DNA of 23,295 nucleotides. Source: a virus. Its lineage: Duplodnaviria > Heunggongvirae > Uroviricota > Caudoviricetes. Under the pieces are notes generated by a model, which made no database searches, was not told the DNA's origin, and was given only the letters and a program-made list of their open reading frames with translations. Position 1 is the stretch's first letter. Each line of letters opens with the position of its first letter. Shown here in pieces: positions 1,071 through 1,441 of the stretch. Both the position numbers and the translations under genes were made by a program. The stretch lies in IMG/VR virus record IMGVR_UViG_2531839454_000013; one strand, written 5' to 3'.

Positions 1071-1098
1071 TTGAAAGCGTCCGGGTTATTCGTATTAT
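1071..1098 (+). promoter_or_regulatory. Putative sigma70 promoter for the tRNA cluster
   Basis: TTGAAA (-35), 16-nt spacer, TATTAT (-10), followed by a GC-rich discriminator (GTGCCGCG) and preceded by an AT-rich UP-like tract (1025-1070); about 30 nt upstream of the first tRNA. Found by eye, not scored. Confidence 0.4.
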
Positions 1099-1130
1099 TG
1101 TGCCGCGTCAGAGCAATGATGTAATGGACA

Positions 1131-1207
1131 GGCCCTTTAGCTCAGTTGGTCAGAGCGAGCGACTCATAATCGCCAGGTCGCTGGTTCAAGTCCAGCAAGG
1201 GCCACCA
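1131..1207 (+). tRNA. tRNA with CAU anticodon, most similar to E. coli tRNA-Ile2 (lysidine-CAU, reads AUA); elongator Met not excluded
   Basis: Cloverleaf read by eye: acceptor GGCCCTT/AAGGGCC, D-arm GCTC...GAGC, anticodon loop CTCATAA, T-loop TTCAAGT, 3' ACCA. Closely resembles ileX from memory. One A:C mispair in the anticodon stem as I parsed it. Confidence 0.8.
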
Positions 1208-1208
1208 G

Positions 1209-1285
1209 CCGCCACTAGCTCATCCGGATAGAGCATCAACCTTCTAAGTTGATGGTGCGAGGTTCGAGTCCTCGGTGGCGGGCCA
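1209..1285 (+). tRNA. tRNA-Arg (anticodon UCU, reads AGA/AGG)
   Basis: Acceptor CCGCCAC/GTGGCGG (C1:G72), D-arm GCTC/GAGC, anticodon stem TCAAC/GTTGA with loop CTTCTAA, T-arm CGAGG-TTCGAGT-CCTCG, 3' GCCA. The 5' boundary could be 1208. Confidence 0.75.
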
Positions 1286-1287
1286 GT

Positions 1288-1363
1288 GCCGACTTAGCTC
1301 AGCAGGCAGAGCAACTGACTTGTAATCAGTAGGTCACCAGTTCGATTCCGGTAGTCGGCACCA
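1288..1363 (+). tRNA. tRNA-Thr (anticodon UGU, reads ACA)
   Basis: Acceptor GCCGACT/AGTCGGC, D-arm GCTC/GAGC, anticodon stem ACTGA/TCAGT with loop CTTGTAA, T-loop TTCGATT, 3' ACCA. One A:C mismatch in the T-stem as parsed, so function is slightly uncertain. Confidence 0.65.
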
Positions 1364-1366
1364 TAT

Positions 1367-1441
1367 GCGGGTATCGTATAATGGCTATTACCTCAGCCTT
1401 CCAAGCTGATGATGCGGGTTCGATTCCCGCTACCCGCTCCA
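1367..1441 (+). tRNA. tRNA-Gly (anticodon UCC, reads GGA/GGG), glyT-like
   Basis: Near-identical by eye to E. coli glyT: GCGGGTATCGTATAATGGCTATTACCTCAGCCTTCCAAGCTGATGATGCGGGTTCGATTCCCGCTACCCGCTCCA; anticodon loop CTTCCAA. Confidence 0.85.

Follow-up and report, generated by a model that had tools for sequence, protein, structure and literature searches.

A mosaic four-gene tRNA cluster of a lambda-like Escherichia coli prophage and its putative role in supplementing minor host tRNAs

Gene content and structure of the tRNA cluster

The window, which is the whole 23,295-nt stretch of viral DNA analysed here (IMG/VR record IMGVR_UViG_2531839454_000013), carries four tRNA genes on the + strand at positions 1131–1441, all of which were called by both ARAGORN and Rfam family RF00005. 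In 5' to 3' order, these are tRNA-Ile2 (1131–1207, anticodon CAU, 70.5 bits), tRNA-Arg (1209–1285, UCU, 57.8 bits), tRNA-Thr (1288–1363, UGU, 69.8 bits), and tRNA-Gly (1367–1441, UCC, 65.6 bits). The RF00005 scores of 57.8–70.5 bits (E = 3e-10 to 8e-14) compare with a gathering score of 29. Consecutive genes are separated by spacers of 1, 2, and 3 nt, respectively, and the CCA end is encoded in all four. The four anticodons are those of the original prediction, and the check with tRNA prediction tools that it had proposed accepted every gene as a tRNA and reassigned no anticodon. Beyond these tRNAs, no other Rfam family reached its gathering score in the window. An sRNA reading of the locus was discarded, given that Rfam yields tRNAs only; a preprint on Pas-sRNA has no bearing on it.

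Two of the genes had been suspected of carrying a stem mispair. Mispairs do exist, but Rfam flagged three, namely A27·C43 in Ile2, A52·C62 in Thr, and U13·U22 in Gly (none in Arg), and none of them is a defect. All are inherited from functional tRNAs, as the first also occurs in ileZ of Stx phages, the second in host thrU, and the third in host glyT. Compensatory stem changes among homologs are present in the Arg/Lys scaffold and Gly families and in the acceptor stems of Ile2 and Gly, while the Thr and Ile2 sequences vary too little among themselves to inform on covariation. The four genes are apparently functional elongator tRNAs of a lambda-like E. coli prophage, as judged from their sequences.

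Identity and origin of the four tRNAs

The CAU tRNA is annotated by PGAP as tRNA-Ile in an annotated relative of the window. Its identity to K-12 ileX is 70/77, the differences including a compensatory change of C6-G67 to U6-A67, and it has three differences to ileZ of phage 2851. Positive determinants for TilS are C4-G69 and C5-G68, and those of tRNA-Met for TmcA are C27-G43, C30-G40, and G44 (PMC2500205). The acceptor stem of the window tRNA (GGCCCUU/AAGGGCC) contains both TilS pairs, whereas the TmcA set is missing and A27·C43, G30-C40, and A44 are found in its place. The Ile2-type assignment proposed earlier is thus well founded; the gene is an ileZ ortholog, and its product is a predicted lysidine-dependent reader of AUA. 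Automatic "tRNA-Met" calls are hereby corrected to Ile2, a correction of modest practical value.

The genes were compared with sister clusters from E. coli and IMG/VR, which are arranged as Ile2-Lys(UUU)-Thr-Gly or Ile2-Arg(UCU)-Thr-Gly and have the same slots, order, and spacing as the window. The nearest match of the slot-2 tRNA-Arg is argN (UCG) from phage 2851; argO and host argU are more distant. It has C1-G72 and G73, and has the D-arm and T-arm in common with argN, but its anticodon is UCU where argN has UCG, with a predicted reading of AGA/AGG; the anticodon loop is the same as that of argU. In many sister clusters, the anticodon on this scaffold is UUU (Lys), accompanied by an unusual C33. 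The paired CNG motif of the UCG form is missing from the UCU and UUU forms. Among 27 unique sequences with this scaffold, double changes of the compensatory type occur at five pairs, and pairing is kept in 98.2% of cells. Cys(GCA) was considered as a fourth anticodon on this scaffold and rejected, as the likeness is confined to the half with the D-arm and anticodon stem.

The tRNA-Thr is 74/76 identical to K-12 thrU, and both differences are U-to-C changes in the D-loop, a pair of changes that goes with clusters of the Arg(UCU) type (20 of 21 copies). Its anticodon arm equals that of host thrU, with CUG/CAG (CNG at 28–30 and 40–42), A27-U43, five of five pairs formed, and A37. The tRNA-Gly matches K-12 glyT at 73/75 positions and differs solely by one compensatory change of C6-G67 to U6-A67, and the anticodon arm is again that of the host gene. 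Three pairs with double changes were found in the Gly family among homologs. Among 82 sister clusters, 45 have a Thr gene with 100% identity to thrU, in line with simple dosage. Of 81 Thr copies of full length (76 nt) surveyed in sister clusters, 79 keep the host anticodon arm. G42/U43 changes akin to a published resistance signature occur in two rare Thr alleles (L086, L116).

The Thr and Gly genes appear to have been captured recently from the host operon thrU-tyrU-glyT-thrT, an origin of these two members that the comparison with K-12 brought to light. On sequence grounds, the cluster as a whole is a mosaic of an ileZ of Stx-phage type, an argN scaffold with an exchanged anticodon, and near-copies of thrU and glyT.

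Promoter and terminator

A sigma-70 promoter is predicted on the + strand at 1071–1098, with the −35 hexamer TTGAAA (1071–1076), a 16-nt spacer, and the −10 hexamer TATTAT (1093–1098). Directly 5' of the −35 lies an AT-rich, UP-element-like tract (1030–1070, 78% AT compared to 46% in the window), and the 9 nt after the −10 form a GC-rich (78%) discriminator-like segment, TGTGCCGCG (1099–1107). The predicted transcription start site (TSS) is at about 1105, which would leave a leader of about 25 nt. These are the sequence features of a stable-RNA-type promoter described in the original prediction. The site has 10 of 12 consensus matches in a motif scan, but a chance match of equal quality (10/12) lies within the tRNA genes themselves (1355–1382, across the Thr-Gly junction), and the motif by itself is thus weak evidence.

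Conservation adds to the motif. Both hexamers are invariant in five unique homologous upstream sequences, in which spacer and flanks vary, and the diverged homolog of Sx181 likewise has a GC-rich discriminator (GGCGCAGCA). In the promoter class that is commoner among sister clusters, the −10 is 96% and the −35 is 86% conserved, compared to 49% in the flanks (56 unique sequences). The promoter is preceded by a conserved module that bears a terminator and, in relatives, comes after the antiterminator gene Q. In an Stx2a lysogen, differential RNA sequencing has placed a TSS for tRNAs at the corresponding position (PMC7547250), although that promoter belongs to a different sequence class than the one in the window. 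A dedicated sigma-70 promoter for the tRNA operon is plausible by this analogy and from the sequence; the upstream tract may act as an UP element, and the GC-rich discriminator may confer stringent control. Comparison of 991–1131 with the regions upstream of K-12 thrU, ileX, and argU revealed no similarity, which rules out a captured promoter of these host tRNA genes. Likewise, the sequence 3' of the window Gly gene has no similarity to that 3' of glyT.

The cluster had also been credited with a terminator of its own, but no canonical one was found next to tRNA-Gly. Directly after this gene, a pattern scan found no terminator and folding was like that of shuffled sequence (z = 0.27); the sole local hairpin (about 1445–1467) is weak (−7.9 kcal/mol) and rich in G-U and A-U pairs, and its U-run forms its own 3' arm. 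The first canonical intrinsic terminator 3' of the cluster lies on the + strand at 1710–1738, about 270 nt past tRNA-Gly, and consists of a stem-loop (1710–1728; 7-bp stem with five GC pairs, 5-nt loop; −11.1 kcal/mol, z = −2.5) and a subsequent T8 run. It has a counterpart in Sx181 (L009, 3787–3806), in which the loop and the stem ends differ, and transcripts that start at the tRNA promoter probably end here.

Genomic context and distribution

An annotated relative (L001) is 100% identical to the window over 1000–1520. The gene order in this near-identical prophage is Q, a pR'/tR'-like module, a small ORF, a DNA methyltransferase gene, the tRNAs, a terB-like gene, holin and endolysin genes, and terminase. 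The Q gene is outside the window, and the location of the cluster, 3' of Q plus terminator and 5' of the lysis genes of a lambdoid prophage, was read from L001 and Sx181. Morons near the tRNAs in the relative encode an ompC-like porin, the methyltransferase, and the terB-like product. Toxin cargo 3' of the cluster, as known from Stx or LT-II phages, was considered and discarded, as annotation and Pfam yielded only terB-like, DUF3927, and holin genes at this place. The tail genes of the window are riddled with apparent frameshifts in the form of clustered single-base deletions (12.6–12.7 kb and 17.9–21.4 kb). These may be assembly errors; if they are real, this phage copy is possibly defective, in which case a benefit would be confined to the host.

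Three E. coli chromosomes contain the tRNA region with 100% identity, and exactly this order of Ile2-Arg(UCU)-Thr-Gly was present in at least 25 of the 120 viral contigs sampled. The four-slot cluster family was detected in 603 of 5,426 complete E. coli genomes (~11%), i.e. about one in nine sequenced E. coli contains a carrier prophage. Sister clusters include degenerate members (slot 2 of L008 is unannotated), and pseudo-tRNAs have been reported in stx2i phages. The tRNA cluster is thus real, yet it is a common and already annotated type of prophage feature and not a new one.

Codon usage

Codons cognate to the four tRNAs are enriched in the phage genes relative to the host, as had been anticipated. 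Per 1000 codons, usage rises from 0.5 in the host to 3.3 in the phage for AGG, from 1.0 to 5.4 for AGA, from 5.1 to 14.0 for ACA, from 3.0 to 6.2 for ATA, from 7.2 to 14.6 for GGA, and from 9.6 to 15.5 for GGG, and these codons occupy ranks 1, 2, 3, 7, 9, and 10 of 61 by phage/host ratio. Their description as the classic rare-codon set applies only in part, since ACA and GGA, at the host frequencies given, are low-use but not classic rare codons. The A-ending codons CTA, TTA, CAA, GTA, and GAA are depleted in phage genes, and the enrichment is therefore no generic bias for A at the third position. Comparable enrichment was found for CGA, CGG, TCA, and AGT (ranks 4, 5, 6, and 8), for which the cluster has no matching tRNA.

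A check of the late genes had been suggested; the enrichment is present but strongest in early, not late, genes, whereas the cluster sits in the late operon. Early demand and late position fit together only if the dedicated promoter is active. Moreover, ATA, AGA, AGG, ACA, and GGA add up to 43.5 per 1000 codons in the prophage and 16.9 in the host, but to 50.1 in phage lambda, which has no tRNA genes. Codon demand of this kind is thus generic to lambdoid phages and does not explain carriage of the cluster, and the lambda control weakens codon enrichment as proof of phage need. An ACA bias together with a Thr-UGU tRNA has been described for phage SfI (PMC3636060).

Putative function and alternative explanations

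We consider it fairly probable that the cluster serves to supplement minor tRNAs of the host. Selection for function is suggested by the stem-preserving compensatory changes and the encoded CCA ends, and the recurrence of all four anticodons in the T-even phage RB14 and of a Thr-UGU tRNA with ACA bias in SfI speaks for supplementation. From the identities and homologies of the four genes, their conserved structures, the codon demand, and the conserved promoter motif described above, we infer the following course of expression, processing, modification, and fitness benefit. The operon would be transcribed from its own sigma-70 promoter (1071–1098) in the lysogen and early in infection, and Q-antiterminated read-through would add transcription during lytic growth. 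By analogy to E. coli tRNA biology, RNase P would cut the 5' ends and exonucleases would trim the 1–3-nt spacers. Host enzymes would modify the tRNAs, with lysidine placed on Ile2 by TilS and mnm5U- or cmo5U-type modifications expected on the species with U34, and host synthetases would charge them. The products would be extra copies of Ile2 (AUA), Arg-UCU (AGA/AGG), Thr-UGU (ACA), and Gly-UCC (GGA/GGG), isoacceptors for each of which the host has one or two genes, and replication of the phage genome would further raise the tRNA gene copy number. Decoding would improve for codons that are used two to six times more in phage, especially early, genes than in host genes, and other horizontally acquired genes of the lysogen may gain as well. 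The benefit of the cluster may be small or conditional.

The cluster could accordingly lift the expression of AT-rich phage genes and of acquired genes, including virulence genes, in lysogens and upon induction. Plasmids that carry tRNA genes for rare codons are used for protein expression, and if the supplementation of minor tRNAs holds, the cluster is a natural counterpart of them.

A broader view, possible but doubtful, is that tRNA clusters in the late region of lambdoid prophages are modular, fast-evolving cassettes whose slot-2 scaffold is repeatedly reassigned (UCG, UCU, UUU), and that the choice of modules is driven partly by an arms race with tRNA nucleases (P2-OLD, PARIS, PrrC) and not by codon supply alone. 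If true, the window would represent "supply-type" alleles, with its host-identical Thr and Gly arms, and the evasion alleles would be found in sister clusters, as C33-bearing Lys on an Arg body and as the rare Thr alleles with G42/U43. The pair of U-to-C changes in the D-loop of the window Thr might then have an unrecognised role.

That the cluster mainly replaces host tRNAs cut by defence systems (P2-OLD; PARIS or PrrC on tRNA-Lys), with codon supply being secondary, appears unlikely. The main lethal target of P2-OLD in lambdoid infection is ThrU, the only UGU tRNA-Thr of the host, and rescue from P2-OLD is provided by phage-encoded tRNA-Thr(UGU), among others that of the lambdoid phage 21 (PMC12445682). 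OLD also attacks Arg, Lys, Val, Cys, and Asn tRNAs, species that recur in lambdoid clusters. The UUU forms with C33 in slot 2 of sister clusters, the loss of the paired CNG motif from the UCU and UUU scaffold forms, and the two Thr alleles with the resistance-like signature all point in the same direction, as does the equal codon usage of lambda, which weakens the supply of codons as an explanation. However, resistance to P2-OLD is set by the anticodon arm and needs both a changed CNG and a shortened stem, and surplus host ThrU gives "little to no protection" (PMC12445682). The window Thr has the anticodon UGU, but its CNG at 28–30 and 40–42 is unaltered and its 27:43 pair, and with it the 5-bp stem, is retained, as is A37. 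An anti-P2-OLD rescue function of this Thr allele was therefore rejected. Host-identical anticodon arms of both Thr and Gly argue against a role in nuclease evasion, and the anticodon loop of Arg is that of argU. Retention of the host arm in nearly all full-length sister Thr copies (79/81) points the same way, and no nuclease that targets Ile2, Arg-UCU, or Gly-UCC was found in the literature searched.

A benefit to the lysogen, with constitutive extra tRNAs selected as morons for host translation of AT-rich acquired genes (virulence or plasmid genes), is rather unlikely as the main explanation. It would agree with a dedicated promoter that follows a terminator and does not depend on Q, with the TSS detected for tRNAs during lysogeny of the Stx2a lysogen, with the other morons around the cluster in the relative, and with the wide occurrence of the cluster family (603/5,426 E. 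coli genomes). The frameshifted appearance of the tail genes next to an intact tRNA region that is 100% identical to relatives would also agree with it, but these frameshifts may be assembly errors. Furthermore, T-even phages, which are strictly virulent, have the same set of anticodons, and there the phage alone can benefit.

It is very improbable that the tRNAs are functionless hitch-hikers, a recombination scar, or a secondary site at which tRNA-targeting islands, for example the PICIs that integrate into tRNA-Ile2 genes, could attach, as the apparently recent host captures and the degenerate sister members might suggest, because stems are preserved by compensatory substitutions, promoter hexamers are conserved, Rfam scores are high, and the family is widespread, modular yet ordered, across hundreds of genomes. 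Use of the cluster as a PICI integration target was rejected, as no island is inserted at the window tRNA locus.

Comparison with known phage and host tRNA clusters

Of the systems compared, the ileZ-argN-argO cluster of Stx phages (933W/Sakai type; compared with phage 2851, FM180578) occupies the same position, 3' of Q and a terminator and 5' of the cargo and lysis genes. No literature naming ileZ, argN, and argO together was found. Slot 1 holds the same gene, with the three differences given above, slot 2 has the same scaffold with C1-G72, D-arm, and T-arm, and a promoter-like element lies directly 5' in both, for which the tRNA TSS has been mapped in an Stx2a phage. The two clusters differ in that argN has UCG where the window has UCU, and in that argO stands in place of Thr(UGU) and Gly(UCC). 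The window cluster had been interpreted as an extension of ileZ-argN-argO by Thr and Gly, but this does not hold, as slot 2 is UCU and not UCG, argO is missing, and a module derived from thrU and glyT is present instead. The promoters are of different classes, TTGAAA-16-TATTAT ending 32 nt before the first tRNA in the window and TTGCAA/G-17-TATTAT ending 9 nt before it in Stx phages, and the window, unlike Stx phages, has no toxin cargo downstream.

The host operon thrU-tyrU-glyT-thrT, located upstream of tufB, shares with the window Thr and Gly genes their mispairs and whole anticodon arms. Compared to this operon, tyrU, the 116-nt spacer, and thrT are gone and only 3 nt separate Thr and Gly; flanks and promoter are unrelated, and the phage genes differ by two U-to-C changes in the D-loop of Thr and by the compensatory 6:67 change in Gly. 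The sister clusters, identical in layout, mostly have the other promoter class, and many have UUU (C33) for UCU in slot 2.

The tRNA cluster of T-even phages is the classical case of phage tRNAs for codons rare in E. coli. That of RB14 includes all four anticodons of the window, tightly packed, but comprises ten tRNAs in a virulent phage, is ~82% similar for three members, and differs in context and regulation. The Asn(GUU)-Thr(UGU) pair of SfI, Sf6, ST64T, and phage 21 is also located 3' of Q in lambdoid phages and differs in composition. The Thr of phage 21 has an altered anticodon stem and resists P2-OLD, whereas the arm of the window Thr is identical to that of the host. Host-like and nuclease-resistant phage tRNA alleles thus offer a clean, testable contrast for the debate on codon supply versus evasion of defence.

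Identity and origin of the tRNA genes

ARAGORN and the Rfam tRNA model both identified four tRNA genes on the plus strand, with anticodons CAU (1131-1207), UCU (1209-1285), UGU (1288-1363) and UCC (1367-1441), as originally predicted. Rfam scores were 57.8-70.5 bits (E 3e-10 to 8e-14; gathering score 29), and the Rfam search of the whole window gave no match beyond these four. The spacers measure 1, 2 and 3 nt and all four genes encode the CCA end. The CAU tRNA is identical to K-12 ileX at 70 of 77 positions and differs from ileZ of Stx phage 2851 at three. Because it has C4-G69 and C5-G68, positive determinants of lysidine synthetase TilS, and lacks C27-G43, C30-G40 and G44, determinants of the tRNA-Met acetyltransferase TmcA (PMC2500205), this first gene is by its sequence a tRNA-Ile2, the type proposed for it; the ARAGORN label "Met" was rejected as the usual anticodon-only call. 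The UCU tRNA in the second position (slot 2) is identical to host argU at only 56 of 77 positions and is clearly closest to argN of Stx phages. The two have the D-arm, the T-arm and the unusual start C1-G72 in common; the anticodon of argN, however, is UCG. The UGU tRNA is host thrU with two U-to-C changes, both in the D-loop, and the UCC tRNA is host glyT with a compensatory change of C6-G67 to U6-A67. Judged from these comparisons, the cluster is a mosaic of ileZ, an anticodon-shifted argN, and captured thrU and glyT.

Stem mispairs had been suspected in two of the tRNAs and raised doubts about their function. The Rfam alignments place one non-canonical pair each in Ile2, Thr and Gly and none in Arg. 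The functional host genes have the very same pairs at Thr A52.C62 and Gly U13.U22, and Stx-phage ileZ also has Ile2 A27.C43 (the host has G27.U43 there); the mispairs thus exist, in three genes, but by their occurrence elsewhere are harmless. Among the matches listed, 120 IMG/VR contigs carry the slot-2 scaffold. Its Arg/Lys family (27 unique sequences) has five pairs with compensatory double changes and 98.2% of cells paired, and the Gly family in the IMG/VR survey has three such pairs, a signature of tRNAs under structural selection.

Genomic context

The window corresponds to the late region of a lambdoid prophage, whose closest public relative is a prophage of E. coli strain 504838 (NZ_CP025856.1), integrated beside yecN/cmoAB, with 100% identity over 1000-1520 and 98.6-98.83% overall. 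Gene order there is integrase, immunity and replication genes, Q, a reverse-strand ompC-like porin, a small ORF, a DNA methyltransferase and the four tRNAs (labelled tRNA-Ile, Arg, Thr and Gly by PGAP), followed by a hypothetical ORF, a terB-like gene, DUF3927, two holins, an M15 endolysin, terminase, portal, capsid and tail genes. Pfam checks of the window's flanking ORFs agree with this annotation.

The relative Sx181 has no insertion between Q and the tRNAs. Its short module after Q (L009 ~2800-2870) has a good terminator at its end, AACCCGTCGGCGAACGGGTTTTTTT (-10.9 kcal/mol), and recurs in strain 504838 upstream of the small ORF (L001 ~18390-18480, upstream of the window). This conserved module pairs a promoter-like site (TTTACG-16-TATGAT in L001) with a strong terminator no more than ~60 nt further on. 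It is a candidate pR'-tR' unit, from which a small RNA might arise by analogy with StxS of Stx phages. In Sx181 the element TTGAAA-16-TATTAT lies ~200 nt past the module terminator, so the promoter next to the tRNAs is distinct from the candidate pR'-tR' and lies 3' of it. In strain 504838 the ompC-like porin gene (L001 17047-18144, reverse strand, outside the window), a moron, is an insertion that separates Q from the candidate late promoter module, and late transcription would have to cross it in antisense.

Two further features concern the far end of the window. The last ~266 nt (23030-23295) have no counterpart in the closest relatives, which match the window up to 23029, and are covered in another genome, NZ_LR883006.1; this places a mosaic breakpoint close to where the J-like tail-fibre gene ends. 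Relative to the 504838 prophage there are ~110 gap openings, mostly single-base deletions, at 12638-12704 and 17907-21426 and none in 1-12600. The gaps cluster in tail genes V, L, K, I and J and split them into short ORFs. Either the prophage has truly decayed, or the assembly or consensus is locally wrong in a region that recurs among lambdoid prophages.

Promoter, leader and terminator

The predicted promoter-like element was recovered at 1071 on the plus strand (TTGAAA, 16-nt spacer, TATTAT; 10 of 12 consensus positions in a motif scan), with 78% AT in the 41 nt upstream (window 46%) and 78% GC in the discriminator-like 9 nt past the -10. Taken alone, a 10/12 motif is weak evidence for a promoter: a second such match at 1355-1382 (TCGGCA-16-TATAAT) crosses from tRNA-Thr into tRNA-Gly, and its TATAAT falls inside the D-arm of the latter. 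This match almost certainly arises by chance from the tRNA sequences and shows the false-positive rate of the scan. Hexamer conservation adds weight to the call. Within the window's promoter class, represented by five unique sequences from homologous upstream regions, the hexamers are invariant and the spacer, discriminator and flanks vary. Most sister clusters, the homologous four-slot prophage clusters, have a second class, TTGCA(A/G)-17-TATTAT, whose end lies exactly 9 nt ahead of tRNA-Ile2 and which is conserved at 96% in the -10, 86% in the -35, 72% in the spacer and 49% in the upstream flank (56 unique sequences). A dedicated promoter active in lysogens is plausible; the one feature that would point to stringent control is the GC-rich discriminator.

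The predicted leader between the -10 and tRNA-Ile2 (1099-1130) contains a 10-nt block, AGCAATGATG at 1111-1120 in the window and CGCAATGATG in Sx181-type sequences. Its last 9 nt (GCAATGATG) are invariant in diverged upstream sequences of the window's promoter class (L009, L010, L011), in which adjacent positions vary, and the block may be a processing or regulatory signal.

The cluster had also been credited with its own terminator. The terminator scan found no canonical one directly after tRNA-Gly, the 165 nt 3' of the cluster fold no better than shuffled sequence, and the sole local hairpin is weak, with the U-run serving as one arm. The first canonical terminator past the cluster, followed by T8, is at 1710-1728 (plus strand) and has a counterpart in a diverged relative. 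The ORF at 1625-1864, a PGAP hypothetical protein in relatives, has no Pfam match and holds two convergent intrinsic terminators (plus at 1710-1728, minus at 1782-1758); it is probably no gene but non-coding sequence, both trailer and terminator.

Codon demand and probable role in tRNA supply

The codon count took in 10,629 codons from the near-identical prophage's annotated CDS and 27,418 from K-12 chromosomal regions. Ranked by phage/host ratio among 61 codons, AGG (host 0.5, phage 3.3 per 1000), AGA (1.0, 5.4) and ACA (5.1, 14.0) are first, second and third, ATA (3.0, 6.2) seventh, GGA (7.2, 14.6) ninth and GGG (9.6, 15.5) tenth, all with Fisher p <= 1e-5. The expected enrichment is thus present. 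The ranks between are held by CGA and CGG, which argN-UCG would read, and by TCA and AGT. CTA, TTA, CAA, GTA and GAA are depleted in the phage, so the enrichment is no general effect of A in third position. Early genes have the highest values (ACA 21.0, GGA 17.9, AGA 8.7, ATA 8.4 per 1000) and structural genes lower ones. However, phage lambda, which has no tRNA genes, is equally heavy in the five main codons (50.1 per 1000; this prophage 43.5, host 16.9), so the enrichment is generic to lambdoid phages and does not suffice on its own to account for retention of the cluster in this phage.

Supply of minor tRNAs to the phage is the best-supported reading and probably holds. The promoter would give a transcript of ~630 nt (~1105 to ~1735), to which Q-antiterminated read-through would add during lytic growth; RNase P and exonucleases would cut the transcripts into four tRNAs, which host enzymes would modify and charge. 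The dosage of four minor isoacceptors would be doubled or better, and amplified further on phage replication.

Counter-defence against tRNA-cleaving systems is an unlikely main role that keeps some weight, because lambdoid phages are the targets of OLD, the lambda codon control weakens a pure supply argument, and the slot-2 scaffold also occurs with UUU and an unusual C33. According to a 2025 study (PMC12445682), P2-OLD, the classic anti-lambda exclusion factor, kills by cleaving host tRNA-ThrU(UGU), and its cleavage site is a CNG motif paired between nt 28-30 and nt 40-42. An altered CNG together with a shortened anticodon stem enables phage tRNA-Thr(UGU), that of phage 21 among them, to rescue; extra host ThrU gives little to no protection. 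The window's Thr anticodon arm is, however, exactly the host's (CUG/CAG, five pairs, A37), its Gly arm exactly that of glyT and its Arg anticodon loop equal to that of argU. Among 82 Thr genes of sister clusters in the matches listed, 45 are 100% identical to thrU and 21 have the window's allele. Only two, both from IMG/VR (L086, L116), have adjacent changes (G42C/U43C or G42U/U43C) that change the 3' CNG motif and also disrupt the 27:43 pair, resembling the published two-factor resistance signature; the remaining full-length copies surveyed keep the host arm. With host-identical anticodon determinants, the window's cluster looks like extra copies rather than evasion variants.

Lambdoid clusters share in slot 2 one full-length homologous 77-nt scaffold (C1-G72), which comes with any of three anticodons, UCG (Arg, Stx argN), UCU (Arg, the window) and UUU (Lys), and was observed at window 1209-1285, L005 4078-4154, L007 3078-3154, L006 3078-3153 and the IMG/VR loci L012-L131. 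The UUU form has C33 in place of the near-universal U33, is the commonest (54 of 120 viral contigs among the matches listed), and is annotated by PGAP as tRNA-Lys in some genomes and left unannotated in others. UUU is the Lys anticodon targeted by PARIS and PrrC. That the clusters form an anticodon-switching, defence-driven modular cassette is unlikely.

Of the other readings, a supply of minor tRNAs that mainly benefits the host seems rather improbable, and a passenger or attachment-site role very improbable.

Relation to known clusters

The 311-nt cluster occurs at >=80% coverage in 603 of 5,426 complete E. coli genomes, 23 of them at >=99% identity, and the version with the window's promoter and flank in 13. 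Among IMG/VR contigs, at least 44 carry Ile2-Lys(UUU)-Thr-Gly, at least 25 the window's Ile2-Arg(UCU)-Thr-Gly and at least 23 the Stx-type Ile2-Arg(UCG)-Arg(UCU). Lambdoid tRNA clusters have been known since the 1990s (Schmidt et al. 1997; phage 21, Sf6 and ST64T, as cited in PMC3636060), and our literature search found no paper on this exact four-tRNA composition; the cluster is common and already annotated in public genomes. The original prediction observed it correctly and interpreted it largely rightly, with details corrected here.

Stx phages have the same layout, a tRNA-proximal promoter downstream of a pR'-tR' unit, of which the window's relatives have a candidate. The cluster had been taken as ileZ-argN-argO extended by Thr and Gly; ileZ is common to both, but slot 2 is an anticodon-shifted argN (UCU, not UCG) and argO is absent, so it is not an extension of that arrangement. 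Host thrU and glyT belong to the thrU-tyrU-glyT-thrT operon. The prophage lacks tyrU and the long spacer, leaving 3 nt between Thr and Gly, and its flanks and promoter are unrelated to those of the operon. The T-even phage RB14 cluster contains the same four anticodons, which suggests recurrent selection for this set in coliphages.
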